Positions 27,072 to 63,415 of a stretch of DNA of 64,000 nt are shown in pieces. A model generated the notes under the pieces. The model saw only the letters and a list, made by a program, of their open reading frames with translations, made no database searches and was not told the DNA's origin. The first letter of the stretch is position 1. Each line of letters begins with the position of its first letter. The stretch lies in the IMG/VR virus record IMGVR_UViG_3300025012_000055, positions 27,381-91,380 of that record, one strand, 5' to 3'. The DNA is from a virus. Both the position numbers and the translations under genes were made by a program.

Positions 27072-27138
27072 TTCATTTTATACTTGTTTATTTTAATTAT
27101 TTTACTTACTTTTGTATCTTGAAAGTATTTATAATAAA

Positions 27139-27210
27139 ATGAAAAACATAAATTTACATAATCTCCCACAGCTACCCAGTAATAAACATTGGGGTGGAAA
27201 ACTTATGTAA
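27139..27210 (+). CDS. Attenuator leader peptide 1 (MKNINLHNLPQLPSNKHWGGKLM)
   Basis: Codon run CTC CCA CAG CTA CCC matches downstream tRNAs Leu(TAG), Pro(TGG), Gln(TTG); lies between promoter and terminator. Confidence 0.8.
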   Translation: MKNINLHNLPQLPSNKHWGGKLM

Positions 27211-27237
27211 AAAAATTAAAAAAATACAATAGATTAT

Positions 27238-27277
27238 AAACCCTGATGTTCAATAAAAAAGTCATCAGGGTTTTTTT
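27238..27277 (+). terminator. Intrinsic terminator/attenuator before tRNA cluster 1
   Basis: aaaccctgatg..catcagggttttttt; the 5' arm can instead pair with 27185-27195. Confidence 0.85.
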
Positions 27278-27296
27278 ATTGATAAAAAATTAAAAT

Positions 27297-27368
27297 ATGG
27301 TGTTAGTTCAGAGGCAGAACGCTACATTTGGGATGTAGAGGTCGAGATATCATAATTCTCACACCATA
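27297..27368 (+). tRNA. tRNA-Pro(TGG)
   Basis: Cloverleaf, ctaca-tttggga-tgtag; atypical T loop. Confidence 0.85.
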
Positions 27369-27385
27369 CAAAAAAATTAAAAAAT

Positions 27386-27459
27386 ATTCCAGTATCCCAA
27401 TTGGTAGAGGATATAGTATTAGAAACTATAAAGTGAGAGTTCGAATCTCTCCTGGAGTA
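27386..27459 (+). tRNA. tRNA-Leu(TAG), short variable loop
   Basis: atagt-attagaa-actat; gagag-ttcgaat-ctctc. Confidence 0.85.
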
Positions 27460-27460
27460 C

Positions 27461-27534
27461 TACCGGATCTTCTAATTTTGGCAGGAAAGCACCCTTTGAA
27501 GGTGATAATATAGGTTAGATCCCTACTCTGGTAA
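27461..27534 (+). tRNA. tRNA-Gln(TTG)
   Basis: taccgga/tctggta acceptor; cacc-ctttgaa-ggtg. Confidence 0.75.
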
Positions 27535-27638
27535 CTACAAAAATTAAAAAAATATTAGATAATACTTGTTTATTTCAATTATTTTACTTACCTTTGTATT
27601 CTAAATATCTGAATTAATAACTTAAAAACCTAAAAAAA

Positions 27639-27845
27639 ATGAAAGATAAACCACAAAAGCCGAAATTGAATACTACTGTTGTTGGCGGTAGTTTTTATTG
27701 GGTTAGACCATTTCAAGGAGATGAATTTGAACCTGCAAAGGCTAGAGATAGATATGAGAATGGAGAGCTATATTTCTGCTTTACAAACGGTAGTGTGTTG
27801 GAAGTAGAGCGCGCTTGGGAGGTTGAGCCATTAAATTTCAGCTAA
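27639..27845 (+). CDS. Small cassette-like hypothetical protein
   Basis: Follows the promoter at 27565; stop codon within GCTAAC. Confidence 0.65.
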   Translation: MKDKPQKPKLNTTVVGGSFYWVRPFQGDEFEPAKARDRYENGELYFCFTNGSVLEVERAWEVEPLNFS

Positions 27846-27900
27846 CGGTTTTGGGATTGCTGTCAGGTTTCTTACGGATTAACAACTAAAATATAATTAT

Positions 27901-28140
27901 ATGAACGAAGAATTAAGAGTGATATCACAAAGCTATTGCGGAATGACACCGAAAGATAAAGGATGCAAAACTTGGGCTGAGATGCAACAGAAAATGGCAG
28001 ATGAATTGGAATGTGTAGTAAAAAATTATATTGTCCAAGCAAATGTTAGCGGACACTTGTGCCAATGTGGAAATCCGATTGCCAGAACGGAGTGCGATGA
28101 TTGTTTAGACAATAGAATTAGATGCAAGTTAGAAAATTAG
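27901..28140 (+). CDS. Small cassette-like Cys-rich protein
   Basis: CQCG..CDDC; flanked by GTTAGCGGA/TCCGCTAAC. Confidence 0.65.
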   Translation: MNEELRVISQSYCGMTPKDKGCKTWAEMQQKMADELECVVKNYIVQANVSGHLCQCGNPIARTECDDCLDNRIRCKLEN

Positions 28141-28222
28141 GTACAATTTCCGCTAACGCATCGGAGATTTATGAAGGATTTTTTACGACTTAAACTACAA
28201 ATTTAAAAATATAAAAAACACA

Positions 28223-28465
28223 ATGACAAAAGAAGAATTGATTACAAAGCAACAACTGGAAATAGAGCAGTATCAAATTGCAATAGAAGAAAACAAAAAA
28301 CTGCTGAAAAAGATAAAACTAAATTTCATTGCGATAGGGATGCCGTTAAATGATAACCTATTGCAATTTGATAAGAAGCAGATAAAATGGTGCTTGGAAA
28401 CATTAGAAATGATTGAACAAATTAACTGTACTGTGCTTGACTATGAGGGTGTGTGGGCGGGTTAA
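28223..28465 (+). CDS. Small hypothetical protein
   Basis: IG.PLNDN.LQF motif; A-rich initiation region. Confidence 0.65.
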   Translation: MTKEELITKQQLEIEQYQIAIEENKKLLKKIKLNFIAIGMPLNDNLLQFDKKQIKWCLETLEMIEQINCTVLDYEGVWAG

Positions 28466-28558
28466 AAAGTTTGCGTATAAGTAGGGGATTGTCGCAATAT
28501 TATTGATTTTTTAAAATATTTTACTTATATTTGTACTTTGAAACTATTTATTAAGAAA

Positions 28559-28639
28559 ATGAAAAACTGGTTAAACATATCAATTCATAGTAATAGTCGT
28601 AATATTATACGACCTGGAAGGGGTATGTTTATACAATAA
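28559..28639 (+). CDS. Attenuator leader peptide 2 (MKNWLNISIHSNSRNIIRPGRGMFIQ)
   Basis: 13 of codons 3-18 are decodable by the seven downstream tRNAs, and all seven are represented. Confidence 0.85.
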   Translation: MKNWLNISIHSNSRNIIRPGRGMFIQ

Positions 28640-28658
28640 TCATTTTTAAAAGATATAT

Positions 28659-28695
28659 AAAAAACCCCTTGGATTAAGTTTTTAAGGGGTTTTTT
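28659..28695 (+). terminator. Intrinsic terminator/attenuator before tRNA cluster 2
   Basis: aaaaaacccctt..aaggggtttttt; the 5' arm is also complementary to aaggggt 28618-28624. Confidence 0.85.
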
Positions 28696-28700
28696 AATTT

Positions 28701-28774
28701 TGGTCTGTAACTCAGAAGTTTAGAGTGCCAAGCCGTTAACTTGGAAGCCGGGATGGCAGAATTCCCCAGACCAG
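28701..28774 (+). tRNA. tRNA-Asn(GTT)
   Basis: ccaag-ccgttaa-cttgg; tggtctg/cagacca acceptor; atypical T loop. Confidence 0.8.
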
Positions 28775-28790
28775 CTGGAAATATAAAAAA

Positions 28791-28874
28791 GGAAAAGGAC
28801 TGGCATGGACGAAGAGATAGTCTTGAAAACTATTGTGTGTAAAAACATCGTGAGTTCGATTCTCACCTTTTCCG
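28791..28874 (+). tRNA. tRNA-Ser(TGA)
   Basis: atagt-cttgaaa-actat, long variable arm, G73. Confidence 0.85.
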
Positions 28875-28888
28875 CTTTTTTAAAAAAC

Positions 28889-28959
28889 AGGTTCTTGGTG
28901 TAATGGCAGCATCTGAAATTCCAAACTTCAGGGTATGGGTTCGAATCCTATAAAACTTG
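28889..28959 (+). tRNA. tRNA-Trp(CCA)
   Basis: tgaaa-ttccaaa-cttca; atggg-ttcgaat-cctat; G73. Confidence 0.8.
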
Positions 28960-28960
28960 C

Positions 28961-29046
28961 GGAAAATAAACCAATCAGGGTATTGGGCCTATTTGCTAAA
29001 TAGTGCGTTCTGTAAAAAGAATGTGTTTCAAATACTCTGTCCTCCG
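28961..29046 (+). tRNA. tRNA-Ser(GCT), degenerate
   Basis: ctat-ttgctaa-atag, long variable arm; mismatches in acceptor and T stems. Confidence 0.6.
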
Positions 29047-29057
29047 CAAAATTATAT

Positions 29058-29130
29058 TGACCAGTAGCTCAATTGGTGGAGCAACATTCTGATGAAATGA
29101 AGGTCGAAGGTTCAAATCCTTCCTGGTCAA
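29058..29130 (+). tRNA. tRNA-Ile(GAT)
   Basis: catt-ctgatga-aatg; tgaccag/ctggtca. Confidence 0.88.
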
Positions 29131-29139
29131 CAAAAAACT

Positions 29140-29212
29140 ATTTTCTTAGTTTAACTGGATAAAATATTTGGCTACGAACCAAAAGATGAGAGTTCGAATC
29201 TTTCAGAAAATA
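29140..29212 (+). tRNA. tRNA-Arg(ACG)
   Basis: tttgg-ctacgaa-ccaaa; attttct/agaaaat. Confidence 0.85.
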
Positions 29213-29227
29213 CATTATAATTAATAT

Positions 29228-29302
29228 GGTGCTATTGTTGTAAATTGGTGAGCATAGAAAACTGTGAATTTTCAGGTAAAGGTTCAATTCCTTTATGGCA
29301 CC
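29228..29302 (+). tRNA. tRNA-His(GTG)
   Basis: gaaaa-ctgtgaa-ttttc; G-1:C73. Confidence 0.88.
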
Positions 29303-29310
29303 CAATAATC

Positions 29311-30003
29311 TTAATTTAATAATTCAAAAACTTCTTTTATTCCTTCACTAGCTTTTTTATTAATATAAGTAATTTCCATTCCAATTTTACTTAAACTTTT
29401 AACTGGGTTTGGATCAATAAAAAATACTTCACAAGATAATTTTATATAAGTTAACATTTGAAAACAATAATGGATAAATAAAGAAGTTCCAATTATTATT
29501 AAATAATCACATTTTTCAATTGTTTTATATGATTCTTCAATATTACAAGGATATTCCCCAAACCAAACAACATGAGGTCTTAATTGTGAGCCATTTTCAC
29601 ATTTATCACCCAACTTTATATCATTATAACCACAATCATATATTAAATCTTCATCTGATGAGCTTTGAGATTTTGTAAGTTCCCCATGAATGTGAATAAC
29701 ATTTGAAGAGCCACCCCTTTCATGTAAATTATCAACATTTTGAGTTATCACGGTAACATCAAAATTATTTTCAAGTTCTGCAATTAATTTATGCGCCAGA
29801 TTTGGTTTTACATTTTCCAGTTGCCTTCTTCTTTCGTTATAAAAATCTAAAACTTTTTGTTTATCTTTGTGCCATGCACTTATTGTTGCAACATCATCTA
29901 TTTTATGGTTTAACCATAAACCATTTTTTCCTGTCCTGAATGTTGGGATGCCAGATTCCTCACTTACGCCCGCACCAGTAAAAACAACTATTTTCTTTTT
30001 CAT
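29311..30003 (-). CDS. cobB: Sir2/CobB NAD-dependent deacylase
   Basis: TGAGVSEESGIPTFR, TQNVDNLHE, HGE, LRPHVVWFGE, IGTS. Confidence 0.93.
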   Translation of the reverse strand: MKKKIVVFTGAGVSEESGIPTFRTGKNGLWLNHKIDDVATISAWHKDKQKVLDFYNERRRQLENVKPNLAHKLIAELENNFDVTVITQNVDNLHERGGSSNVIHIHGELTKSQSSSDEDLIYDCGYNDIKLGDKCENGSQLRPHVVWFGEYPCNIEESYKTIEKCDYLIIIGTSLFIHYCFQMLTYIKLSCEVFFIDPNPVKSLSKIGMEITYINKKASEGIKEVFELLN

Positions 30004-30064
30004 TTATTTGTTTTTTTAATAAATATTTATAAATAAGAATATATTTATATAATGATATAATAAC

Positions 30065-30763
30065 ATGAAAGATCAAATATCCAGAATGAAAGAATTGATT
30101 AATTATAATATTAATTATGGTTATATTAATGAAGAAATGGAAACTTCTGATAATTTTATAAATAATACATTTCAAGAATATAAAGAAAAAAATGCAATTG
30201 CAGTTGAGGTTAGCATTGATTCAGAAAATGATGTTGATTACAGATTAGCACTTATATTAAGATTTACAAATGTTAGTGGATATGATGAATTAGTATTTTA
30301 TTTTTCATTAATAGATAAAAATAATCAGTTTGTAAAAGGAAAAGAAAGTATTTATAATAGAGAAGAAGCAAATAAATATTTACCAAAAAAATTACAAGGT
30401 AGTATTTCTTTTTTTACTAAACTAAAAGAAATGTTTAAAAAATTAATAAATATGGAAACACCAGATATATTTTTTATGGAAACATATGAAGATTTTATAA
30501 GTGAAAGATTATTAAATCCTTATAGAAATTTAATTCCATTAATATTGGAAAATGGATATCTTTTGGAAAAAGAAGGAATATCCCATGATAAAAAGAAATA
30601 TTATTGGAAATTTGTAAAAAAAACAAATCAACAAATAAAAGAAGATAAGGAATTTGAATATTTTATAAATAATTTTAAAAAAGATGATGAATATTGGGAA
30701 AAATTTAATAAAGAATCAAGAATAATTATTGAGAAAATGTATGGAAATAAAAAAATTATTTAA
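30065..30763 (+). CDS. Hypothetical, probably head-internal, protein
   Basis: MKDQISRMKELINY N-terminus; TATTTATA motif upstream. Confidence 0.65.
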   Translation: MKDQISRMKELINYNINYGYINEEMETSDNFINNTFQEYKEKNAIAVEVSIDSENDVDYRLALILRFTNVSGYDELVFYFSLIDKNNQFVKGKESIYNREEANKYLPKKLQGSISFFTKLKEMFKKLINMETPDIFFMETYEDFISERLLNPYRNLIPLILENGYLLEKEGISHDKKKYYWKFVKKTNQQIKEDKEFEYFINNFKKDDEYWEKFNKESRIIIEKMYGNKKII

Positions 30764-30766
30764 AAA

Positions 30767-31744
30767 ATGAAAACTTTAAAATCCGTTGGTGAGTTCCCAA
30801 ATATAAGAAAAGGAGAAATCAAAAAAGGAAATAATAATATCTTGTCTTCCCTCAAAATTAAAAATGATTTAAACAGAGATATTTGGGATGAAAATGATCA
30901 ACTAAAAGAAAATATAAAAAAAAATCTTTTGGAAGTTGGAAAAGATTTCTTTGATTATCTTGAATTAACCACAGAAATTAAAGATATAATAATAACAGGT
31001 TCTCTTTCAAATTATAATTGGTCCAAATATTCGGATATTGATTTACATGTTATTTTTGATTTTAATGATGTCAAAGAATCTGATGATATAGAATTTATAA
31101 AAGAATACAGCAATGCAAAAAAATCAATTTGGAATGATACCCACAATATAAAAATAAAAGGATTCGAGGTAGAAATATATGGGCAAGATAAAAATGAGGT
31201 TCATAAATCTAATGGTATTTATTCTGTTTTAAATAATAAATGGATAATAAAACCAATAAAAAAAGAATTTAAAGTTGACTATGAATTAATTAAAAATAAA
31301 GCAAATCAATTAATGAAAGAAATTGATAATTTATCTTCTGATAATAATTTAATAAAAAAAATTGATAAGATTAAAGATAAAATAAAACGTATGAGAGAAT
31401 GTGGTCTTGAACAGGGTGGGGAATATTCCATTGAAAATTTAACTTTTAAAATGTTAAAAAGAAGTGGTTATTTAAAAAAACTAAATGATATTAAAAATAA
31501 ATCTTATGATAATGAACTCTCAATTAAAGAAAAGTTAAATACAGAAGAATCTGATATGGGTCCAACTATTGGAGAACCAAAGGATAAACATGGATATGAT
31601 GATTCTGGGAATGAAAATGCAATGGGTTGGTGGGGATTGGAAGGTGGTGGAAGTTCCGATTATTCCTCATCTTCCTTTGATTCAAGTTCCGATATTTTTG
31701 ATTTAAAAGAATCATTAAAAAAAGAATTAAGAAAATATTTATAA
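30767..31744 (+). CDS. Pol-beta-superfamily nucleotidyltransferase
   Basis: TGSLSNYNWSKYSDIDLH (GS-x-DxD); VEIY carries the third acidic residue. Confidence 0.8.
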   Translation: MKTLKSVGEFPNIRKGEIKKGNNNILSSLKIKNDLNRDIWDENDQLKENIKKNLLEVGKDFFDYLELTTEIKDIIITGSLSNYNWSKYSDIDLHVIFDFNDVKESDDIEFIKEYSNAKKSIWNDTHNIKIKGFEVEIYGQDKNEVHKSNGIYSVLNNKWIIKPIKKEFKVDYELIKNKANQLMKEIDNLSSDNNLIKKIDKIKDKIKRMRECGLEQGGEYSIENLTFKMLKRSGYLKKLNDIKNKSYDNELSIKEKLNTEESDMGPTIGEPKDKHGYDDSGNENAMGWWGLEGGGSSDYSSSSFDSSSDIFDLKESLKKELRKYL

Positions 31745-31914
31745 CTTTTCTTTTTATGTAATATTTATATAATGAAGTTTGTTTAAATTGGTTAATAAAA
31801 TAATCAATAAAATATTAAAAACCCAATACCATTCATTTTTTTCCAATATTAATCAATTGGCAAACTTCAAAATGGGTGTGAGGGTTTTATATTTTTTTAA
31901 AAAAATAAACTTAT

Positions 31915-32928: not shown

Positions 32929-32984
32929 TAAAATATAAATTTTTTTCTATTTAACTAATATTTATAATAAAAATATAAAAAATT

Positions 32985-34172: not shown

Positions 34173-34194
34173 TTTTTAAAAATATAATTAACTA

Positions 34195-41421: not shown

Positions 41422-44370
41422 GTGGGTAGGACATCAAAAGAAAATAGAATTGTTGAATTTGCAAAATGTATAAAAGACCCATCATATTATGCTGAAACTT
41501 TTTGTCAGACATTTGATATGACAAAAGATAAAAATGTCCCATTTAAAATGTTTAGAAGACAAAGGGAATTAGTACAAAATTGTATTAATAATAGATATAA
41601 TATTATTAAAAAACCAAGGCAAGCTGGGGTTACAACATCCATTTCTTTATTTGCTGCATGTTATATGATGTTTCAAGAGAAAAGAAAAGTTATGATTGTT
41701 GCCAACAAACAGGACATGGCATTTGAAATGTTAAAAAAAATAAAAGAATTCATACATTTTGCTCCTAGTTGGATGGGAATTAATTTAACAAGAATTGCTC
41801 AGGGTATATTAGAATTAAATAATGGTAGTCTTGTTAAGGCATTTGCAACTTCAGAAGATGCTTTGAGGGGATTTACTCCAACTTTACTAATTATTGATGA
41901 GGCAAGTAATATTAGAGATGGTGCTGAATTTTGGGGTGCTGCACACCCTTCACTTGCAAGCGGGGGGAAATGTATTATATGCAGTACTCCAAGGGGAATG
42001 GACGAATTTTATTGGGCAATATATGATGCAGCTTTAAATAATAAAAGTAATTTTTATATAAATGAATTTAAGTGGTATGAAGATCCAAGATATAATGATA
42101 AATTAAAATGGACAAAGGGTGATTTAATTATTGATACGTGGTTAAAAACAAAAGTAAAAGATGAAGATTACGAAGTATTTGAAAGATTAGAAGAAAAAGG
42201 ATTTGAGCCAACTTCTCCCTGGTTTGAAGATCAATGCAGGGAATTAAATTATGATAAAAGACGAATTTCACAAGAATTGTTGGGAAAATTTATTGGTTCT
42301 GGCGATAATGTTATTGATGAAAAAGATATTAATTTTCAAGAAAAAGAAAATGTAATGCCACCGATAAGAAGTGAGGGATTTGATGGAAATGTATGGATTT
42401 GGAAAGATCCAATTCCAGATCATCAGTATATTTTGGGATGCTTACCACCTGGAGAAAAAGTATTGACAAACGAAGGATTAAAAAATATAGAGGATATAAA
42501 AATTGATAATTTACTTATAGATGAAAATGGAAATTTTACTAAAATAAAAAATATTCAAACAACAAAAAATATAAATGATGAATTATATGAATTTAAATTA
42601 AGTAATGTTTGTAGAAAAACAATTTTTACTAGAAATCATCCAATATTATCAAGTATAAATACCGAACTAAAAAGAAATTGGAAAAGGAAGCATCCAGAAC
42701 ATAAATTTGGAAAACGATATTGGGATTTTAATTTCAATTTTATTAATTCAGAAAATTTAAAAATTAATGATTGGATCAAATATCCTAATTTATATTATAA
42801 TAAGGATTTAACTGATAATGAAATATTATCAAAATGGGATAAATATAAAAATATTGGTAGAACTGATTTTAAAATTAAAAACCCATTATTAGAAAAAGAC
42901 TTTTGGTGGTATGTTGGGATATGGTTGGCCGAGGGGTGGTATTTAAAATCTAAAGCAGTTGAAAAAAGTAAAGGTTTATCAACTTGTCATAATATAAATG
43001 AAAAAATATTTGCATATAAAATAAAATTTTTGTGTGAAAAAATATTTAATAGAAAAGTAAATATAAGAGATAGAGAATCTGTAGTATATACACAATTTAA
43101 CTCATTACAATTATATAGTTTTTTTCTTGATAATTTTAGTGAATACGCCCATAATAAAAAATTACCTGAATGGGTAAAATATTTACCTAAAAAATATAAA
43201 ATAGAAATTTTAAAAGGATATTTTGATGGTGATGGGTGTTGGTCAAAAACATATAAAAACAATAAAGGTTTTTCTTTTATAGCATTTGTCAGTGTTTCTT
43301 TAGAATTATTAGAGGGAATTCAAGATCTATTATTTTCATTAGGAATTATTTCCGCATTAAAAATATTGAGAAAGGGGGGGTTTTGTATTATTGAAAATAG
43401 AAAATTTAAAACTAAAATAACATACGACTTAACTTTAGCACATTATGATAGTTTACAATTAGTTAATATGTTTAATATTAAAAAATATAATCATGTAAAT
43501 ATTAATGATTTTGAAATTAGAAATGAAAGAATTATTTCTGGTACTTTAATCAGTAAAGATAATAAATGGATTTATCACAAAATAAAAGAAATAAATAAAA
43601 TACCTTATAATGGAGATGTTTATAATTTTGAAACAGAATCTCACACTTTTTTATGTAAAAATATAACAACACATAATTGTGATGTATCAAGGGGTGATAG
43701 TAGTGATTTTAGTACAATTTGTATAATAGATTTACATGCTGGAGAACAGGTAGTGGAATATCAGGGAAAAATAACACCTGATTTTTTTGGGGAACTTATA
43801 TATGATTATGCAAATAAGTATCAAGCATATACAATAATTGATGTAACTGGTGGAATGGGGGTTGCCCCAATTCTAAAATTAATAGATATGGGATTTGATA
43901 AAAAATTACTTCATTATGATAATCCCAAATCCAGATTAATACAAGAAAAGTTGGGCAGATTTAAAAAAGGAGATAAATTACCAGGATTTAATATAGGAGC
44001 AAATAGAAATATGACCATAATGGAATTTGAAAGACAAGTTAGAATGGGTGAGATAAAAATTAGATCAAAAAGATTAATAAATGAAATGAAAACTTTTATT
44101 TGGAAAAATGTTGGACCAAATGTCAGCAGACCAGATCATATTTCTGGAAAAAATGATGACCTTATTTGGAGTATATCAATGCCACTTTTTATTTCTCAAA
44201 CAACATTTAAAAATCTTAAAAGATATAATGAACAAACAAAAGCAATGTTGAGTAGCATGACATCTGATTCAAATCAATATAAGGATACAATAACACCACA
44301 AACAGGATATATGGGGAGAAATGATACAAAATGGGCATATCAAGAATATGGGTGGTTATTTAAAAAATAA
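41422..44370 (+). CDS. Terminase large subunit (gp17-like) with intein
   Basis: RQAGVTT, LIIDEA, STPRG, DVSRGD..DFS, NDDL motifs. Confidence 0.93.
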   Translation: MGRTSKENRIVEFAKCIKDPSYYAETFCQTFDMTKDKNVPFKMFRRQRELVQNCINNRYNIIKKPRQAGVTTSISLFAACYMMFQEKRKVMIVANKQDMAFEMLKKIKEFIHFAPSWMGINLTRIAQGILELNNGSLVKAFATSEDALRGFTPTLLIIDEASNIRDGAEFWGAAHPSLASGGKCIICSTPRGMDEFYWAIYDAALNNKSNFYINEFKWYEDPRYNDKLKWTKGDLIIDTWLKTKVKDEDYEVFERLEEKGFEPTSPWFEDQCRELNYDKRRISQELLGKFIGSGDNVIDEKDINFQEKENVMPPIRSEGFDGNVWIWKDPIPDHQYILGCLPPGEKVLTNEGLKNIEDIKIDNLLIDENGNFTKIKNIQTTKNINDELYEFKLSNVCRKTIFTRNHPILSSINTELKRNWKRKHPEHKFGKRYWDFNFNFINSENLKINDWIKYPNLYYNKDLTDNEILSKWDKYKNIGRTDFKIKNPLLEKDFWWYVGIWLAEGWYLKSKAVEKSKGLSTCHNINEKIFAYKIKFLCEKIFNRKVNIRDRESVVYTQFNSLQLYSFFLDNFSEYAHNKKLPEWVKYLPKKYKIEILKGYFDGDGCWSKTYKNNKGFSFIAFVSVSLELLEGIQDLLFSLGIISALKILRKGGFCIIENRKFKTKITYDLTLAHYDSLQLVNMFNIKKYNHVNINDFEIRNERIISGTLISKDNKWIYHKIKEINKIPYNGDVYNFETESHTFLCKNITTHNCDVSRGDSSDFSTICIIDLHAGEQVVEYQGKITPDFFGELIYDYANKYQAYTIIDVTGGMGVAPILKLIDMGFDKKLLHYDNPKSRLIQEKLGRFKKGDKLPGFNIGANRNMTIMEFERQVRMGEIKIRSKRLINEMKTFIWKNVGPNVSRPDHISGKNDDLIWSISMPLFISQTTFKNLKRYNEQTKAMLSSMTSDSNQYKDTITPQTGYMGRNDTKWAYQEYGWLFKK
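42439..43677 (+). mobile_element. Intein with LAGLIDADG endonuclease in the terminase (413 aa)
   Basis: CLPPGEKV..TRNHP..GIWLAEG..GYFDGDG..VYNFET..THN|C, inserted just before the nuclease Asp. Confidence 0.92.
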
Positions 44371-45221: not shown

Positions 45222-48200
45222 ATGGCAGAACAACAAAAAACTACTTTATATCAACGACTTACAAAACTCTTTGGAACAGGTGGCCAACCTGTAATTGATA
45301 AAAAACCTTCAATATCAGCAAAAGAATTATTGACAGCGACTTCTGCCGAAGAACTGATGTTAAAAAAATTAGCAGCCCAGCAATCACAATATTTGGGAAA
45401 TCAATTTGAGAAAATAACATCCAATTTATATCAACAATCAGTTTATTATGAAACAACAAGACTTGCAAGTTATGCGGATTTTACGGCCATGGAACATACC
45501 CCAGAAATTGCGGCCACTTTAGATCTTGTATCTGAAGAAAGCTGTCTAGCTGGGAATAGTACTATAAGATTATTAGATGGAACTAACCCAACAATAAAAA
45601 AATTATATAAAGAAAATAAAAAAAATTTTTGGATATATTCTTATGATACTAATAATAATAAATTTATTCCATCTAAAGCAGAGAAAGTAATTTATAAAGG
45701 CATTCAAGATATATATTTGATTAAATTAGACGATGATACAAAAATAAAATGTACTGGTAATCATAAATGGTTAGGGAAAGATAATAAGTGGATAGAAACA
45801 CATGATTTATATAAAGGATATTTTTTCATTAATCATAAGGTTATTTCTATAAAATATATGGGAAAAGAGAAAGTATATGATGTTGTTAATTCTGGTAAAT
45901 TTAATAATTTTGGGGTTAAGTGTAATAGTGGGATGATTATAAGTCATAATTGTACGCTCTCAGAATTTGGTAAAATGTTACAAGTATTCTCTGATAGTAA
46001 AAGAGTTAAAACAATTCTTGAAAATTTATTTTATAAAACTTTAGATATTAACATTAATTTACCAGCATGGACAAGAAATACATGTTTATATGGCGATAAT
46101 TTTATTTATCTTAAATCAGAAATTGGAAAGGGAATTGTTGGGGTTAAACAACTTCCAAATATTGAAATAAGAAGAGAAGAGAGTTCGATTACTGATCAGA
46201 AAAATATGATTAGATTTATTTGGCAAGGAAAAAGTATGGAATTCACGGCCTGGCAAATTGCTCATTTTAGATTATTGGGGGACGATAGAAAATTACCTTA
46301 CGGAAATTCTTTTTTAGAAAAAGTAAGGAAGATATGGAAAATGTTGATATTAGCAGAAGATGCAATGCTTGTCTATAGAATAACAAGAGCACCTGAAAGG
46401 CGTGTATTTAAAATTGATGTTGGAAACTTAGATGATAAAGATGTTGAGCCGTATATTCAAAGAGTTGCTCAAAAATTTAAAAGACAGCCGCAAGCTGAAA
46501 ATACTGGTAATTTTACAGGACAAGTAGATATGAGATATCGAACACTTCCAGTATGGAAAAATACTCCAATCCCATTATTGGATGGTAGAACAATAACAAT
46601 AGAAGAATTATCAAAGGAATATGAAGAAGGAAAATATAATGAGGTCTATTCTATAAAAGATAATACACATGAAATTGTTCCTGGAAAAGTTATTTGGTGT
46701 GGTAGGAATTATAAAGCAAATAAATTAATTAAAATTTGGTTGGATAACAAAACATGGATAATGTCTGCACCAGAACATCCATTTATTTTAAGAGATGGTT
46801 CACATAGTAGAGCAGATAAATTATGTTCTGGTGATAAATTAATGCCATTTAGACATGTTAAAATTAAAATAAAATATACAGAAGAAATTTATGAACCAGA
46901 TGATGTATATTGTATGACTGTTGTTGGACCAAATGGAGAAAATAATAGACATAATTTTGCTGTTTGCTCTCTTAATAAAGATGAAAACTATACGAGAAAG
47001 GGTGTATTTGTTAAGAATAGCACGGATGAAGATTTTTTCTTACCAACAAGACAAGGTGGAGGAGATACAGAAATTGATACATTACCTGGTGCAAGCAATT
47101 TATGTCTTTCATTAGATACAAAAATTCCTCTATTAGATGGTAGAACATTAAAATTAAAAGAAATTATCGAAGAGTATAAAAATAATAAAGATTTATGGGT
47201 TTATAGTTGTAATCCAAATACTGGTGAAATTATTCCAGGGATCATTTCATGGGCGGGAATTACAAGAAAAAATGCTCATGTTTTAAAAATTACGTTAGAC
47301 AACGGAAAAGAGATTATATCAACACCGGATCATAAATTTTTAACAAGGGATGGACTAAAAAAAGAAGCAAAAGATTTAGAAATAAATGAATCTTTGATGC
47401 CGTTTCATAGAAAAAAAGAAAAAATAAGTAAAAATTCTAGTGACTATGAAATGATTTGGGATAATTCAAAACAAAAATGGATTTTTATTCATAGAATGGT
47501 TGGTAGTTATATGAAAGATAAAAATTTACATAATGAATTAATACATAATAATAAATTTATAAATGAAAATAAAAATATTATTCATCATAACAATATGAAC
47601 CGATTTTGCAATAATCCTAGCAATTTATATTTTATGAGTAGAAATGATCATATAGATCTTCACTGTGATTTTAATAATAATTTATTAGAGTGGAATAAAA
47701 ATCCAATTAATTTAAAACAAAAAGGAAAATTAATAAGTAAAACAAAATCAGATCCAGAACGTAAAAAAATATATTCAAAAAACGCTAAAAAATTATGGGA
47801 AAATAAAGAATATAAAAATAAAGTATTTAGCAAACCACAAAAAATTATATTTACTGATAAGTTATATTCAATATTTTTTGATACTTTTAAATTATATGGC
47901 AGAAGTGATTTAACTCTTGAAAAATTAAATTCTAATAAAATCTTTATGCATGAATTTATATTGTCAAATTCAAATATTCGTAGCTCGATGACCAATTTAT
48001 CAGAATTTACTCATAATCATGTAGATAAAATGGTTAAAGAAAAAGGATATAAAAATTATCGAGAATGGGTTAAAAAAACTTCTGATAATTTGGGATATAA
48101 AAATGTTAATTCTTGGAGATATTATATTGCTAAAGAAAATAAAACAGGAAAATATACTACTCATAGATTTTTAGAACAAGATTACTATAATCATAAAATT

Positions 48201-49169
48201 ACTAAAATTGAATGGTTGGAAGAAAAAATTGATACTGGAACAATTACCGTAGATGGAGAACATAAATATCATAATTTTCATACTTTTGCAGTAGAATCTG
48301 GGGTGTTTATATATAATTCTGAAATTGCAGATATAGAATATATCCAGCGTAAATTATTCACAGCAATGAGAGTTCCAAAGGCATTTCTTGGTTTTGAGGA
48401 AGCAATTGGTGAAGGAAAAAACTTGGCACTTCAAGATATAAGATTTGCTCGTACAATTAATCGTATTCAACAATCAATGATTCAGGAATTAAATAAAATC
48501 GCCATTATCCATTTATATATGTTAGGATTTGAAGAGGAACTTGACAATTTTACTTTAACACTAAATTCCCCATCAACACAGGCAGAGATGTTAAAGATTG
48601 AACAGTGGAAAGAAAAAGTATTATTATATAAGGATTTGGTATCATTAAATGATACAGGATTTGCTGCAACGTCAATGACATGGGCCAAAAAGAATATTCT
48701 TGGTTTCTCTGATGATGAAATTATATTGGATCTTAAACAACAAAGAGTGGAAAAGGCTGCAGGAAAAGAAAATGAAGCGCCAGAACAAATTATTCATACA
48801 GGATTATTTGATGCTTTGGATAAACGTTATCAACAAAAACCAGGGGAAGAAGCACCAGAAGGTGGTGAAGGTGGCGCACCTGGCGAATTACCAGGTGTTG
48901 GTGGAATGGGTGGGGGTGAAGAATTACAACCACCAGGTGGAGGGCCAGGAGGTGGTGGAATGCCAGAACTTCCTGAATTAACTGAAGAAAATAAAATTAA
49001 TATATTGGAAAGTGAAGATAAGGAACAAGATTCAAAATATAAAATATTGAATGATGATTCTAAAGTATTAAATGAAGATTTAAAAACAATGTTTGAATCT
49101 TTGGATGAAACGTTAAGTGAAAATAAAGAGATTATTATAAAAAAAATTGAAGATGATGAAAAAGAGTAA
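45222..49169 (+). CDS. Portal protein (gp20-like) with three inteins
   Basis: AHFRL, PYGNSFLE, EDAMLVYRITRAPERRVFKIDVGN, EDFFLP, IDTLPG, VPKAFL, DIRFARTI. Confidence 0.95.
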   Translation: MAEQQKTTLYQRLTKLFGTGGQPVIDKKPSISAKELLTATSAEELMLKKLAAQQSQYLGNQFEKITSNLYQQSVYYETTRLASYADFTAMEHTPEIAATLDLVSEESCLAGNSTIRLLDGTNPTIKKLYKENKKNFWIYSYDTNNNKFIPSKAEKVIYKGIQDIYLIKLDDDTKIKCTGNHKWLGKDNKWIETHDLYKGYFFINHKVISIKYMGKEKVYDVVNSGKFNNFGVKCNSGMIISHNCTLSEFGKMLQVFSDSKRVKTILENLFYKTLDININLPAWTRNTCLYGDNFIYLKSEIGKGIVGVKQLPNIEIRREESSITDQKNMIRFIWQGKSMEFTAWQIAHFRLLGDDRKLPYGNSFLEKVRKIWKMLILAEDAMLVYRITRAPERRVFKIDVGNLDDKDVEPYIQRVAQKFKRQPQAENTGNFTGQVDMRYRTLPVWKNTPIPLLDGRTITIEELSKEYEEGKYNEVYSIKDNTHEIVPGKVIWCGRNYKANKLIKIWLDNKTWIMSAPEHPFILRDGSHSRADKLCSGDKLMPFRHVKIKIKYTEEIYEPDDVYCMTVVGPNGENNRHNFAVCSLNKDENYTRKGVFVKNSTDEDFFLPTRQGGGDTEIDTLPGASNLCLSLDTKIPLLDGRTLKLKEIIEEYKNNKDLWVYSCNPNTGEIIPGIISWAGITRKNAHVLKITLDNGKEIISTPDHKFLTRDGLKKEAKDLEINESLMPFHRKKEKISKNSSDYEMIWDNSKQKWIFIHRMVGSYMKDKNLHNELIHNNKFINENKNIIHHNNMNRFCNNPSNLYFMSRNDHIDLHCDFNNNLLEWNKNPINLKQKGKLISKTKSDPERKKIYSKNAKKLWENKEYKNKVFSKPQKIIFTDKLYSIFFDTFKLYGRSDLTLEKLNSNKIFMHEFILSNSNIRSSMTNLSEFTHNHVDKMVKEKGYKNYREWVKKTSDNLGYKNVNSWRYYIAKENKTGKYTTHRFLEQDYYNHKITKIEWLEEKIDTGTITVDGEHKYHNFHTFAVESGVFIYNSEIADIEYIQRKLFTAMRVPKAFLGFEEAIGEGKNLALQDIRFARTINRIQQSMIQELNKIAIIHLYMLGFEEELDNFTLTLNSPSTQAEMLKIEQWKEKVLLYKDLVSLNDTGFAATSMTWAKKNILGFSDDEIILDLKQQRVEKAAGKENEAPEQIIHTGLFDALDKRYQQKPGEEAPEGGEGGAPGELPGVGGMGGGEELQPPGGGPGGGGMPELPELTEENKINILESEDKEQDSKYKILNDDSKVLNEDLKTMFESLDETLSENKEIIIKKIEDDEKE
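45543..45950 (+). mobile_element. Mini-intein 1 in portal (136 aa)
   Basis: CLAGNS..TGNHKW..VYDV..SHN|C. Confidence 0.9.
46548..47018 (+). mobile_element. Atypical mini-intein 2 in portal (157 aa, begins with Pro)
   Basis: PVWKNTPIPLLDG..APEHPF..VYCMTV..HNFAV..VFVKN|S; exteins rejoin as RYRTL-STDEDFF. Confidence 0.85.
47103..48317 (+). mobile_element. Intein 3 in portal with HNH-like endonuclease (405 aa)
   Basis: CLSLDT..TPDHKF..HRMV..IHH....NNPSNL..HTFAV..IYN|S. Confidence 0.9.
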
Positions 49170-57070: not shown

Positions 57071-57099
57071 TTAATAATAAAACTTAAAAAATAATAACT

Positions 57100-58794: not shown

Positions 58795-58822
58795 TAAGTA
58801 AAGTAGTTCAAATTTAAACCAT

Positions 58823-58862
58823 AAAGGGGGGTCTGGATAATAAAAATTCAGATCCTTTTTTA
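58823..58862 (+). terminator. Intrinsic terminator after the capsid gene
   Basis: aaggggggtctgga..ttcagatcctttttt. Confidence 0.8.
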
Positions 58863-58938
58863 TGTTTATTCTAATTTAAGATTGACTTTAAACGGATTAT
58901 ATATTATATTTGTAATATAATTTAAAAATATTATAAAA

Positions 58939-61062
58939 ATGAAAAAAACAACAATAACGAAAGAACAGGAAAAAGAAATTGTTGCCATTTATTCTTTAAC
59001 AAATATTGGAACAGAACCATTATCATTAAGGTTTAGAATTAGTAAAAAAAGAATTAATCAAATATTTAAAAACTATAATATATCAAAAAAGAAAAAAGGT
59101 AATCAAATAACAAATAATATTATAGAAATAAAAGAAAATTATAAAAAAATAAGAAGTATTTCAAGTAATAATTTTATAGTTAAGTGTAAAAAAACAAACA
59201 AAGAATTTAATGATTATAATAATAAGTCGGGAATATTAACAATTCATTTAAAAAAAATATTTCCAAACATAAAAATACCTTCAAATTATAATAAAAAATT
59301 ATTTTTAAAAGAAAATGGATTTCAATGGCATGAACAATATTTTAACATTTTATTAAAAAAAGAAAAACAAACAAGAAAATGTAAATATTGTGATTGGGAG
59401 ACAACAGATATCAAAAATAAAACTGGGTGTTATGAAATTCATTTAAAAAATACTCATAATAAAACCATAAATGAATTTATAAAACAATTTCCAGAAGAAA
59501 TAAAATATCACCCCAACTTCAAAAAAATTAAGAAAAGAAATGAATCATTCAAAGATACAGATAGTTATATTATTTGTAAAATATGTAACAAAAAACTTAA
59601 AAAATTAACAAATACTCATTTTATTCAACATGGAGTAACTGTAAAAGAATATAAAGAAAAATATTCTATATTATCAACAAATTCTTTAAATAGTACAAAA
59701 AATCAATCAAAAATAACAACAGAATATAATTTAAAACATGGGACGACATTTCCCAATAAAAAATCTTCATATGAAATTGATTTTGAAACAAAATTAAAAA
59801 AAATAAATATTAAATATATAACACCATTTATATATAAAGGAAAGAAATTTGATTTTTATTTGCCAAAAATAGATACGGTTATTGAGATTGATGGGGAAGT
59901 ATTTCATAAAAATTATTTAGAGAACTTAACAATAAAAACAATTCAAAACTCAATAAATGACTATAAAAAATCTAATTTAATCGGATATGATTTTAAATTT
60001 TATAGGATAAGATATAATAAAAATGAAATTTTTAATTCAGAAAATGAATTAATCAATTTAATTATAAATAATTCTTATACTCCAAATTATTCAATTTCCT
60101 ATAACCAAAAAATAATATTAAAAGAATATTTCAAAAATTATATTGAAACAAAGGGAAAATCAAAATTGGAAAAATATATTCCTCTTTTATTGAAATTTAT
60201 AAGAACATTTCATTCAGAGTTTCCATATCCAGAAAATAATGATAATTTAAATGATATTATTAACACTATTAAGAATTATGATTTGTCCAGGGTATATGAT
60301 GAAAACACCAACACTTTTAGTAATATTTGTTATTCAATAGGAAATACATACTTAAAATCATTATTTAAATCATACTGGGATTGTAACTATAAAGGAAATG
60401 AATCACCAATTCATGCATGGAACAACGATACCACAATGAAAAGAATTATAAAATATAGAATTGGATGTAATGATTCTAATGAAATATTTGATTTTTCACT
60501 AAAAAACCTAATAAAGGGTTTATCTGCCAACAGAAATACAATATCATTTTTTAAACCTATATTAGCAGCTTCAATATATAATCATTATTTGCCAAAAAAC
60601 ATTGAAAACCCTATAGTTTTTGATCCTTGTTGTGGATTTGGTGGAAGAATATTGGGGTTTAAATCTTTGTTCCCACATGGAAAATATATTGGATTAGAAC
60701 CAAATAAAAAGATATATGGCGAATTATCAATACTATCTTCAAAATTTGAAGATAATAATGAGTTATATAATTGTAAATTAGAAGATTTTAATAAAAATAT
60801 AAAATATGATATTTGTTTTACAAGCATTCCTTATTTTGATTTAGAGAATTATAATAATTATTTTGATTATAATTCATATAGTCAATGGAAAAAAGAATTT
60901 ATTGATAAGTTACTAACCTATAATAAGTTAATTATTAATATGTCAGAAGAATTATGTAATAAATTGAATTTAAATAAATATATTGATTCTTATATAATAA
61001 AATCTCAATCTCATTTTGGAAATAAGGAAAAAGAAGTTATGATAAAATTAAACTTTTCATAA
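58939..61062 (+). CDS. Zn-finger / PD-(D/E)xK nuclease / amino-methyltransferase fusion
   Basis: CKYC..H...H and CKIC..H...H fingers; FDFYLP..IEIDG..H; DPCCGFGGR (motif I) and FTSIPYF (motif IV). Confidence 0.75.
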   Translation: MKKTTITKEQEKEIVAIYSLTNIGTEPLSLRFRISKKRINQIFKNYNISKKKKGNQITNNIIEIKENYKKIRSISSNNFIVKCKKTNKEFNDYNNKSGILTIHLKKIFPNIKIPSNYNKKLFLKENGFQWHEQYFNILLKKEKQTRKCKYCDWETTDIKNKTGCYEIHLKNTHNKTINEFIKQFPEEIKYHPNFKKIKKRNESFKDTDSYIICKICNKKLKKLTNTHFIQHGVTVKEYKEKYSILSTNSLNSTKNQSKITTEYNLKHGTTFPNKKSSYEIDFETKLKKINIKYITPFIYKGKKFDFYLPKIDTVIEIDGEVFHKNYLENLTIKTIQNSINDYKKSNLIGYDFKFYRIRYNKNEIFNSENELINLIINNSYTPNYSISYNQKIILKEYFKNYIETKGKSKLEKYIPLLLKFIRTFHSEFPYPENNDNLNDIINTIKNYDLSRVYDENTNTFSNICYSIGNTYLKSLFKSYWDCNYKGNESPIHAWNNDTTMKRIIKYRIGCNDSNEIFDFSLKNLIKGLSANRNTISFFKPILAASIYNHYLPKNIENPIVFDPCCGFGGRILGFKSLFPHGKYIGLEPNKKIYGELSILSSKFEDNNELYNCKLEDFNKNIKYDICFTSIPYFDLENYNNYFDYNSYSQWKKEFIDKLLTYNKLIINMSEELCNKLNLNKYIDSYIIKSQSHFGNKEKEVMIKLNFS

Positions 61063-61105
61063 CTAACAACTATTTATATAAAAAAATAATTAAACTTAAT
61101 AAATT

Positions 61106-61507
61106 ATGCCACTATTTACAGATATTTGTGGGGCGGTAGATCAATTTGAAAGTACGATTGCTAATGAAATTGCCACAATGACTACTCATGCCCAATTTTT
61201 AACAGCTGCTGACAATATGTCAAGTGGGAAAACTGATATGAATCTTCAATTATCAGGTACACTTGGTACTCATGTGACTAGATTATTAATTGACAGACTA
61301 ACACTGGTTGAAGCAGATATGAGAAGGTTTTCTACAATGAAGGGTCTTGCTCAAAATATTAATCAAGTTCATGAAGTTTTAAGAGAGCATGCCAAAATTA
61401 CGGCAGCAATTATCAGGGGTGGAACAAGATGTGCAAATGGAAGTGGGACTTCTGCTGCTGATCAAAGATTTTATAAAGATACCATATTTAAAGAATTTGG
61501 CAGGTAA
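61106..61507 (+). CDS. Hypothetical late protein
   Basis: TATTTATA upstream; structural-gene-like composition. Confidence 0.6.
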   Translation: MPLFTDICGAVDQFESTIANEIATMTTHAQFLTAADNMSSGKTDMNLQLSGTLGTHVTRLLIDRLTLVEADMRRFSTMKGLAQNINQVHEVLREHAKITAAIIRGGTRCANGSGTSAADQRFYKDTIFKEFGR

Positions 61508-61579
61508 TTAAATAATTTTTTTAATTAATCTATTGACTTTTTAGAATATTTTATTTATCTTTGTATTTATAATAATATA

Positions 61580-61660
61580 ATGAAACAGATAACGACATAT
61601 TTTGGTGGAAATGGTGATGGCACAACTGATGCGATAACCATAATGGCCAGATTATGTTAA
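61580..61660 (+). CDS. Attenuator leader peptide 3 (MKQITTYFGGNGDGTTDAITIMARLC)
   Basis: TTT GGT GGA..GGT GAT GGC..GAT GCG match downstream tRNAs Phe, Gly, Asp, Ala. Confidence 0.8.
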   Translation: MKQITTYFGGNGDGTTDAITIMARLC

Positions 61661-61681
61661 AAATATAAATAACAACTATAT

Positions 61682-61716
61682 AAAAACCCTGGCTAATAAA
61701 AAGTCAGGGTTTTTTT
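61682..61716 (+). terminator. Intrinsic terminator/attenuator before tRNA cluster 3
   Basis: aaaaaccctggct..agtcagggttttttt; the 5' arm is complementary to tggccag 61644-61650. Confidence 0.85.
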
Positions 61717-61731
61717 GTTTATATGATAAAT

Positions 61732-61808
61732 GGTGATACAGCATATTGGTGCATGTTGCTTCCCTGTCACGGAAGAGATTGTCGGTTCAAATCCGTCTAT
61801 CACCGCCA
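61732..61808 (+). tRNA. tRNA-Asp(GTC)
   Basis: cttcc-ctgtcac-ggaag; G73 and encoded CCA. Confidence 0.88.
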
Positions 61809-61809
61809 A

Positions 61810-61882
61810 GGAACTTTGGTGTAGGTGGTCTGCACAACTGTTTGAAGCACAGTGGGTCTTTGTTCGATTCAAAGAGGTTCCA
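61810..61882 (+). tRNA. tRNA-Phe(GAA)
   Basis: actgt-ttgaagc-acagt; ggaactt/aggttcc. Confidence 0.85.
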
Positions 61883-61902
61883 CAAGGTTATTCATTTTTA
61901 CA

Positions 61903-63132
61903 TCAAACATTACATTTGAGTTCAAATGATTTTACAAATTCAACTTTGTATGGGTTAAACCCTAACCCTATATTCCTTATGTTACTTATGAATTTTTCAC
62001 ATTCAGGAATTACTTTTGATTTTAACATTATTCCAATTGCACCATTAACATCAGCATTTATTGTTTTGCCAATACTACTTAAAAATAAACCACGCTTTAT
62101 TCTTTTGCCAAGATAAATTGCTTGTTTTTGTATCGGTTCAAATGCCAAATGGTCGCATTTACTGGTATAACTTTCTTCCTGCTCAACAAGTTTTATGCTG
62201 TTGAGTTCTAACTTATATTTTATTTTATCTATAAGTTTGGCATGAGGGATAGAAACAAAATTCTGGTTATTACGGCTACCAATATTTATTTTCTTCTTCC
62301 AATGTTCATTTTTACCGATAACAACTGTCCCAATATTATACTTTAAACAGTATTTAAGAATGAAATCGCCTACCTGGTGCATTGCATTTTCTATCTTGTT
62401 ATTCCTGTCAAAAGTTAATTTATTTATTCTGTTTGACGTCCCTTTATTACCAACATAACTCATTAACTTGGCTCGCTTTTTATTAAAATACGCATTGATG
62501 GATTTTAATCCTCTACCGTTGATAATGAAAGGATTATTACCGACATTATCTATTGCTGTGATAAGATTGTTTAATCCCAAATCAATGCTTAATACATTTT
62601 CTTCTTTTATTTTTTCATGTTTTACCTCCTTTTTTTCATAGACAACTTCTATTACAAAACAAGTTGCTTGTGGAATTATTCTCACTTGTGATATATTATC
62701 TACTTTTGTTTTTAATGGTTGAATATTTGCTTGTTTTGGAAAATGTATAAGTCCCCCTTTTAAATTAACTTGCTGATTAGTGAAAATGCAAATAGAATAT
62801 CCAGCCTTATCTTTGTATTTTGGTTGCTTAGGGTTTCCTTTAAATTTGCTTGGGCATTTTTTATATTCTTTTAATGCTTTGAAATATGACTTCCAGTTCT
62901 TAAAAAGTAATTTTATTATTTGCTGCGATGTTTGTGCCGGCAATGCCCTATAATCTTCCTGGTTAAATTCAGCAAGCAATTTAGATAATTCATATTCCTC
63001 AAATTTCTGTATATTACCAAAAAATGCTTGCCGTTTGTGATAATTACAAAAATTATACAATCTGGCTGATTTAAAACAAATATCCTCTATTGCTTTATCG
63101 TTTATCCTAATATGTCGCTCTACGAGTTGCAT
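61903..63132 (-). mobile_element. tnpB: TnpB (MQLVE-type) inserted within tRNA cluster 3
   Basis: SIDLG, INGRGLKSIN, EESYTSKC, GKRIKRGLF, NADVNGA. Confidence 0.92.
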
Positions 63133-63251
63133 TATTTATATAAAACTTAAAGTTTTACACTTATAAATATCTTTCTAAAATAAAAAACTCAATAAAATGA
63201 ATACATAAGAAATAAATAATATCAAAAATTACTATTTATATAAGATAATGT

Positions 63252-63327
63252 GCATCAGTAGCTCAATTGGTAGAGCGCCGGTCTTCCAAATCGGAGGTTG
63301 TGGGATCATAGCCCATCTGATGCTCCA
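63252..63327 (+). tRNA. tRNA-Gly(TCC)
   Basis: ccggt-cttccaa-atcgg; U73 and CCA. Confidence 0.88.
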
Positions 63328-63342
63328 GATTAAATAAAATAT

Positions 63343-63415
63343 GGGGGTACATGTACCAAGGCTGGCGAAGAGCATTTGCAATGCTTTTGGGTGGATTGGA
63401 TTTCCACTATCTCCA
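63343..63415 (+). tRNA. tRNA-Ala(TGC)
   Basis: gagca-tttgcaa-tgctt; G3:U70; A73. Confidence 0.8.

Follow-up and report, generated by a model that had tools for sequence, protein, structure and literature searches.

Transfer RNA clusters and their upstream cassettes

The window analysed here is a stretch of 64,000 nucleotides (nt) from the IMG/VR virus record IMGVR_UViG_3300025012_000055 (positions 27,381 to 91,380), corresponding to the last 64 kb of a virus contig of 91,380 bp with a G+C content of approximately 25%. Three clusters of transfer RNA (tRNA) genes lie on its forward strand, and each is preceded by a cassette consisting of a promoter, a short open reading frame (ORF) and an intrinsic terminator. 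These cassettes, which are candidate leader-peptide attenuators, are the subject of this analysis. The window encodes T4-like structural proteins, including the major head protein, portal, large terminase and tail sheath. Relatives identified in IMG/VR by their major capsid protein (67-71% identity) have genomes of 320-365 kb, and the 91-kb contig is therefore most likely a fragment of a jumbo phage. The host is probably a member of the Bacteroidota. The phage DNA is also present in groundwater metagenomes. Positions 27000-29400 were found in contigs from four other groundwater or soil runs with identical leader sequences, leaving no variation there to compare, and a DNA-level search of 26800-29400 against GenBank phages returned tRNA-sized matches only, with no close relative.

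ARAGORN called eight tRNAs with default settings, and the total rose to 14 once Rfam and relaxed ARAGORN searches were included. Cluster 1 (27297-27534) encodes Pro-TGG, Leu-TAG and Gln-TTG. Cluster 2 (28701-29303) encodes Asn-GTT, Ser-TGA, Trp-CCA, Ser-GCT, Ile-GAT, Arg-ACG and His-GTG. Cluster 3 is in two halves, the first with Asp-GTC and Phe-GAA (61732-61883) and the second with Gly-TCC and Ala-TGC (63252-63416). The genes added by Rfam were Pro-TGG (27297-27368, 49 bits), Gln-TTG (27461-27534) and Asn-GTT (28701-28774, 39 bits), and those added by relaxed ARAGORN were Ser-TGA (28791-28875), Ser-GCT (28961-29047) and Ala-TGC (63345-63416). The contents are those listed in an earlier note on this DNA, although Ser-GCT and Ala-TGC are weak calls and their membership is uncertain. 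A TnpB-type (IS605 OrfB) gene on the reverse strand (61903-63132; Pfam OrfB_IS605 and Cas12f1-like TNB, PHROG transposase) is situated between tRNA-Phe and tRNA-Gly. It divides the unit under leader 3 and is no part of the switch described below.

All three clusters have a single upstream layout, as the earlier note had proposed: a promoter, an ORF of 23-26 codons beginning ATG AAA, a spacer of 21-27 nt, an intrinsic terminator, and then the tRNAs. The promoter of leader 1 (27084-27114) has the form TTG-N19-TTAnnTTTG with a Bacteroidota-type -7 box, and motif matches also placed the promoters of leader 2 (28503-28533) and leader 3 (61533-61563). Leader ORF 1 has 23 codons (27139-27210), and leader ORFs 2 (28559-28639) and 3 (61580-61660) have 26 codons each. 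The stop codons are followed after 27, 21 and 22 nt, respectively, by terminator 1 (27238-27280, in which the hairpin at 27238-27273 has an 11-bp stem and a 14-nt loop), terminator 2 (28658-28699, hairpin at 28661-28693) and terminator 3 (61683-61720, hairpin at 61683-61713 with a 12-bp stem), all three being G+C-rich hairpins that end in a T run. The distance from the T run to the first tRNA is about 20, 4 and 14 nt for clusters 1, 2 and 3. A gap of only 4-20 nt leaves no room for a further promoter, so the tRNAs would be transcribed solely by read-through.

The promoter motif TTG-N19-TTAnnTTTG occurs at 17 sites in the window, with 1.4 expected by shuffling, and the same promoter class heads many other phage genes. 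At these 17 sites the 31-nt promoter is uniform (e.g. TTGGATATGTCAwTTATTTTACTTACCTTTG), and the leader promoters, together with that of a region resembling transfer-messenger RNA (tmRNA) considered below, are slight variants of it. A general sigma-70 promoter scan was uninformative in such AT-rich DNA (31 sites, 23 expected). The earlier note had also pointed to the string TATTTATWA behind the promoter; it is present in all three leaders, but similar AT-rich strings stand behind other promoters too. On both strands of the 91-kb contig, a simple terminator finder returned the three leader hairpins, their reverse-strand images and one further site at 21682-21701 on the reverse strand. Strong intrinsic terminators in this contig are thus almost exclusive to the tRNA leaders, and these three are the only strong ones on the forward strand.

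Leader composition and array content

In leader 1, the regulatory codons CTC CCA CAG CTA CCC (LPQLP) lie at 27163-27177. Codons 3-18 of leader 2 (28565-28612) include codons for N, W, S (TCA and AGT), I, H and R (CGT and CGA), and leader 3 has F, G, D and A codons at 61601-61633. When compared with the phage's own amino-acid frequencies, each leader was enriched in the residues of its own cluster: 7 of 22 residues in leader 1 are L, P or Q (3.2 expected, p = 0.03), 17 of 25 in leader 2 match its cluster (7.7 expected, p = 1e-4), and 9 of 25 do so in leader 3 (4.8 expected, p = 0.04). The off-diagonal pairings of leader and cluster were never significant. A run of at least five L/P/Q residues such as that in leader 1 has a probability of 0.001, and the presence of all six of H, I, N, R, S and W with at least 17 matches, as in leader 2, has a probability of 3e-5.

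In order to compare the cassettes across genomes, 34-54 kb was fetched from each of nine related genomes and their tRNAs were located with the Rfam tRNA model. Cassettes were collected with a pipeline blind to composition, which took the longest ATG ORF of 14-60 codons ending no more than 75 nt upstream of a terminator that itself lay within 260 nt of a tRNA. Together with the window this gave 34 cassettes in 10 genomes, falling into four orthologous classes. A relative may have as many as about 60 tRNAs, grouped by amino acid into a small number of long arrays, and in all nine genomes the main arrays are headed by the same cassette, with a strong terminator (AAACCCGA...TCGGGTTTTTTT) 10-50 nt before the first tRNA. 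Arrays for Pro, His and Gln are preceded by leaders rich in P, H and Q; arrays for Asp, Glu, Val, Leu, Ala and Trp by leaders rich in D, E, V, L, A and W; and arrays for Tyr and Lys by leaders rich in Y and K (YYY..KK.YKK). The large mixed arrays are preceded by leaders of C, I, S, N, F, G, T and R.

A permutation of leaders among arrays, which had been proposed beforehand as a check on the concordance, bore it out. Leaders were reassigned at random to arrays within their own genome. In each of the 10 genomes no other assignment scored as high as the true one, and for all genomes jointly the true pairing gave 585 matches, whereas the highest total in 200,000 shuffles was 524. The cassettes are orthologous across genomes, which means that the 34 are not statistically independent events, and a within-class test was therefore added. 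Within classes, the amino acids of the leaders tend to follow the gain and loss of tRNAs in the arrays (stratified permutation p = 0.0025). For example, Val codons fall from 4-6 to one in the leader of a genome whose array is without tRNA-Val, and Trp is found among the large-array leaders only in the one whose array begins with tRNA-Trp. Leu is raised in leader 1 of the window, whose cluster has acquired tRNA-Leu(TAG). The strongest case of a leader following array content is the window itself, where the arrays have shrunk and been rearranged in comparison with those of the big genomes (Trp and His with Asn, Ser, Ile and Arg; Asp and Ala with Phe and Gly) and the leaders show the same rearrangement.

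The gating is limited to the heads of the main arrays. The solitary tRNAs of the relatives, with a suppressor anticodon (CTA) or Leu-TAA, stand directly after protein genes and have no leader. Solitary tRNAs with the CTA (amber suppressor) anticodon were seen in relatives L112 (G003, stitched 39544), L116 (G004, 46036) and L119 (G005, 44313) and are absent from the window's contig; they are a hint that the phages carrying them recode TAG. A search for an attenuator that would respond to the suppressor tRNA by way of an in-frame TAG codon found none. The position of cluster 3 beside the capsid module is not conserved, since 80 IMG/VR loci around the capsid gene had no tRNAs. Flavobacterium phage vB_FspM_immuto, the nearest cultured capsid relative (41% identity), was considered as a model system and set aside; it has four tRNAs and no leader/terminator cassette.

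Leaders of different classes, in the window and the relatives, share the N-terminal sequence MKN(L/V)x(N/D/H)I, and in the leader RNA an AACATA pairs with a TATGTT near the stop codon, forming the base of the hairpin within the ORF. This common N-terminus and hairpin base suggest that the cassettes arose by duplication.

Alternative helices and the proposed switch

The minimum-free-energy folds of the leader transcripts consist of a hairpin within the ORF (1:2) and the terminator (3:4). In the window leaders the regulatory codons make up region 1. In leader 1, CTC CCA CAG CTA CCC AGT pairs with ATTGGGGTGG to form the 1:2 hairpin, and region 2 (27186-27196) can pair either with the LPQLP codons or with the 5' arm of the terminator (9 bp, -12.1 kcal/mol; empirical p = 0.003 against random windows). 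Region 2 of attenuator 2 (GAAGGGGTA, 28617-28625) likewise pairs with the terminator 5' arm (7 bp, -11.4 kcal/mol; empirical p < 0.003) or with upstream leader codons, and that of attenuator 3 (TGGCCAGA, 61644-61651) pairs with the terminator 5' arm (6 bp, -10.1 kcal/mol; empirical p = 0.048). The segment described in the earlier note, near the 3' end of each leader and complementary both to the terminator 5' arm and to the 5' part of the leader, is thus seen in the folds of all three.

Among the 34 leaders of the comparison set, 30 have a segment in their last 16 codons whose binding to the terminator 5' arm exceeds that of 95% of windows drawn at random from the genome concerned (empirical p, median 0.004). 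Pairs of arm and leader from the same genome also outperformed cross-genome orthologous pairs in the four classes (p = 0.005, 0.015, 0.056 and 0.0005). One lineage carries a three-way compensatory change: region 2 and the 3' arm each have a T-to-C substitution, and the 5' arm has an A-to-G substitution. This change turns the peptide EWG into ERG, indicating that the RNA pairing is conserved while the peptide changes. The leader peptides are not expected to function as folded proteins. In the terminator helix of this class every cell (100%) is paired and four pairs have changed on both sides, a result equalled by none of 500 shuffles. What the sequence itself establishes is the layout of the cassettes, the concordance of leaders with arrays, and the presence and covariation of the alternative helices.

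The effect of a ribosome was modelled by folding the nascent transcript to the end of the 5' arm with a 30-nt footprint masked at each codon. With no ribosome present, 0, 0 and 3 bases of the 5' arm were sequestered by upstream sequence in leaders 1, 2 and 3. With the ribosome on the regulatory codons the numbers were 9, 8 and 7, and with the ribosome past the regulatory codons or at the stop they were 0, 0-4 and 3. In this model the pattern is the behaviour of a classical attenuator in the three window leaders. The logic of trp/his/ilv attenuation that had been suggested for these clusters made several predictions at the sequence level, and those examined all held (concordance in 10 of 10 genomes, antiterminators in 30 of 34 leaders, ribosome scan in three of three).

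We consider that the cassettes are ribosome-mediated leader-peptide transcription attenuators with tRNAs as the regulated genes, and give this reading a probability of about 0.78. We infer leader translation, ribosome-polymerase coupling, stalling and regulated read-through from the arrangement of codons and helices. Transcription would start at the Bacteroidota-type phage promoter, and a ribosome would load on the 23-26-codon leader. If the codons for the cluster's amino acids are decoded quickly, the ribosome would reach the stop codon, region 2 would be covered or recaptured by region 1, and the terminator (3:4) would form, halting RNA polymerase 4-20 nt before the first tRNA. When the cognate charged tRNAs are scarce, decoding would slow and the ribosome would stall on region 1, allowing region 2 to pair with the terminator 5' arm and transcription to read through into the tRNAs. 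The output would restore the quantity that is sensed. As the tRNA product relieves the signal, each cluster would be under its own negative feedback on tRNA supply.

Attenuators of amino-acid operons in E. coli and Salmonella include trpL, hisL, leuL and pheL as well as the multivalent thrL (Thr and Ile) and ilvL (Ile, Val and Leu), and in these a stalled ribosome selects the 2:3 helix. The phage cassettes resemble them in having a short leader with regulatory codons and overlapping 1:2, 2:3 (antiterminator) and 3:4 (intrinsic terminator) helices, and they resemble thrL and ilvL in that a single leader reads several amino acids. They differ in that they regulate tRNAs rather than biosynthetic enzymes, placing the feedback on the tRNA side of the charged pool, in that up to about nine amino acids are sampled per leader, in being phage-encoded, with several per genome, each matched to its own array, and in their probable host group, the Bacteroidota, which is not known to use Shine-Dalgarno-led initiation. 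In ORF position, composition, terminator, and 2:3 and 1:2 helices they have the structure of a leader-peptide attenuator; they fall outside its classical scope because the downstream genes are tRNAs. The E. coli pheST attenuator (pheM leader) controls a synthetase and reads a single amino acid. It is similar to the phage cassettes in that a component of the translation apparatus is controlled and not a biosynthetic pathway, but the regulated genes are for a synthetase there and for tRNAs here. Leader-peptide attenuators of amino-acid operons have been modelled previously (PMC1183508).

The cassettes are also similar to T-box riboswitches, as both couple the state of a specific tRNA to the choice between terminator and antiterminator. 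A T-box, however, binds uncharged tRNA directly through a specifier codon and does not require translation. To our knowledge, T-boxes regulate synthetases, transporters and biosynthesis genes, not tRNA genes. Rfam searches of the window at the gathering threshold, and of 27000-29400 at E <= 1, gave no T-box match, which rules out a T-box as the identity of the element.

The nearest published parallel comes from Anabaena sp. PCC 7120, whose trn operon is an accessory tRNA array under regulation: it is kept silent, is switched on when translation is impaired, and is controlled at its promoter by the repressor protein TrcR (PMC8421152; PMC10272220). The first of these papers makes no mention of a leader, attenuator or terminator (PMC8421152). 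The Anabaena array is chromosomal or plasmid-borne and has no array-specific sensing, whereas the arrays here are phage-borne. A full-text literature search found no description of leader-peptide control of tRNA genes.

A brief check of the record for Caulobacter phage phiCbK (JX100813) showed terminators annotated directly upstream of tRNA blocks. The gene gp083, annotated as a hypothetical protein of 45 amino acids, has 23 of 44 residues that are P, K, L or S and is located ahead of tRNAs for Pro, Pro, Lys, Lys, Leu (three) and Ser (two). A 32-codon ORF with 10 of 31 residues that are F, V, I or Q is ahead of tRNAs for Phe, Val, Ile, Ile, Val, Gln and Gln. The phiCbK genome paper does not discuss attenuation. 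phiCbK is a siphovirus unrelated to the present phage, its genome is high in GC and it infects an alphaproteobacterium, so that its cassettes appear on this brief check to be an independent or convergent instance. Phages rich in tRNAs may have evolved the design more than once.

Several other features of the window were noted. A Sir2-family gene is directly downstream of tRNA cluster 2 on the opposite strand (29311-30003). A weak match to the tmRNA model RF00023 (17.7 bits, E = 6e-5, below the gathering score) is located at 25105-25518 on the forward strand, in a 700-nt gap free of ORFs. It lies behind a promoter (24883-24913) of the same subclass as the promoters of leaders 2 and 3. ARAGORN gave no call there; the region may be a phage-encoded tmRNA. 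In the portal and terminase genes, intein splicing domains are found in the large terminase, which also contains a LAGLIDADG domain, and in the T4-like portal (41422-44370 and 45222-49169, forward strand).

Alternative readings and significance

Besides the orthology of the cassettes, several observations weigh against the attenuator reading. Leader 3 has five Thr codons and its cluster is without a Thr tRNA. In the relatives, Thr tRNAs are in the same array as Phe and Gly. One explanation is thus that this unit has lost its Thr tRNA, perhaps when the TnpB gene was inserted; another is that the gene lies in a part of the genome beyond the contig, where the attenuator reading also predicts further cassettes (Tyr/Lys and Glu/Val). 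Of the 14 tRNAs, two were called only at the 80% threshold and have mismatches in the acceptor stem: Ser-GCT (28961-29047) and Ala-TGC (63345-63416), both on the forward strand. They may be decaying genes, and both amino acids are still in the leaders. The proposed match between leader codons and cluster stands at the amino-acid level and shows no excess at the level of isoacceptors or codon boxes: in the split families (Leu, Arg, Ser and Ile, in arrays covering one codon box) 39 of 71 leader codons were in the box, with 36.7 expected from genome usage. The window leaders do lean to the right box for Leu (CTN in three of four, 26% in the genome) and Arg (CGN in two of three, 14% in the genome). 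Three of the five Ile codons of leader 2 are ATA, which tRNA-Ile(GAT) should not read.

Further points of this kind concern the RNA and the host. The antiterminator of attenuator 3 is the weakest of the three (6 bp). The covariation expected of the helices was seen for 3:4 and, in the comparison of own with cross-genome pairs, for 2:3, but for the class A antiterminator alignment-based covariation was not significant, there being too little variation and one compensatory pair. Several long leaders of the relatives are predicted to form the antiterminator even without a ribosome, and the basal state may differ between cassettes. The anti-antiterminator (1:2) including the regulatory codons is clear in the three window leaders and less so in some of these long leaders. 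Finally, coupling of ribosome and polymerase in the host is assumed.

One alternative retains the switch and changes its signal to amino-acid starvation or general translational stress, in which case tRNA output would be set by host charging, or the switch would be a timer ending tRNA synthesis once translation is vigorous. A stalled ribosome cannot distinguish a missing amino acid from a missing tRNA, and the match between leaders and arrays is at the level of amino acids, not isoacceptors. The Anabaena trn operon, the one published stress-controlled tRNA array, also answers general translational stress. However, extra tRNA is no cure for amino-acid starvation, making the output unfit for such a signal, and there would be no need for four differently composed leaders each following the content of its own array. 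We regard this alternative as improbable.

The sequence of promoter, short transcript, strong terminator and genes is also the layout of Q-type late genes, and the same promoter class heads many other phage genes. Both would suit factor-dependent processive antitermination or a temporal switch of the lambda Q/tR' type in which the short ORFs are incidental. This is considerably less likely still, as it leaves unexplained the ORFs built of their own array's amino acids in 10 of 10 genomes, the co-varying copy of the terminator 3' arm at the 3' end of the ORF, and the location of the regulatory codons within the strand that sequesters region 2. No qut-, nut- or put-like element was recognised, and the Rfam matches were the tRNAs and the weak tmRNA only.

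The hairpins could instead be plain terminators or processing signals of upstream units and the ORFs small peptide genes or chance frames, with the concordance due to shared codon or amino-acid bias. Some baseline overlap is expected, since phage tRNAs often match abundant phage codons, and a large share of the phage proteome is made up of amino acids that have a tRNA in the window. The tests, however, used the phage's own frequencies and arrays from the same genome and found only the own array enriched, and rare residues (W, H, P, Q and C) are exactly where their tRNAs are. Complete termination 4-20 nt before the first tRNA, with no promoter between, would also mean that the tRNAs are never expressed, and the peptide changes where the RNA pairing is kept. 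This explanation is highly unlikely. The least credible is a reversed polarity, in which active leader translation opens 1:2 and favours read-through as a feed-forward on translational activity: untranslated window leaders do fold to 1:2 plus terminator, and several relatives' antiterminators are predicted at most ribosome positions as well as without a ribosome, yet a ribosome past the regulatory codons or at the stop restores the terminator-permissive fold in three of three window leaders, and a feed-forward device needs no array-specific codons.

For the attenuator reading, the trigger could be host tRNA decay after shut-off, a mismatch in codon usage, or a tRNA-cleaving defence. The choice of anticodon-nuclease defence in particular is speculation, as nothing in the sequence singles out anticodon nucleases and any slow decoding acts alike. 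It is possible, though we are doubtful, that the cassettes are a multiplexed, per-array sensor of the usable tRNA pool that serves as an on-demand countermeasure to host tRNA loss, whether from shut-off and turnover or from cleavage by PrrC, RloC or PARIS AriB, and replaces only the set that is short.

Comparative evidence strongly supports a known mechanism, leader-peptide attenuation, acting on a new target class, tRNA genes. If this is true, attenuation would be extended to non-coding RNA genes, to leaders sampling up to about nine amino acids and to Bacteroidota-type hosts. For annotation, a short ORF and terminator before a phage tRNA array is likely to be regulatory and not a hypothetical protein, as phiCbK gp083 is currently labelled, and phiCbK with Caulobacter crescentus offers an experimental system that is already at hand. 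As compact codon-specific sensors, the cassettes could also find use in synthetic biology. Why phages carry tRNA genes is a long-standing question, for which codon-usage compensation, host tRNA turnover and escape from tRNA-cleaving defences have been proposed as answers. If the attenuator reading is correct, at least these phages measure the decoding speed of defined sets of codons and make the matching tRNAs in response, and a self-referential attenuator of this kind would make the question of phage tRNA use directly testable.

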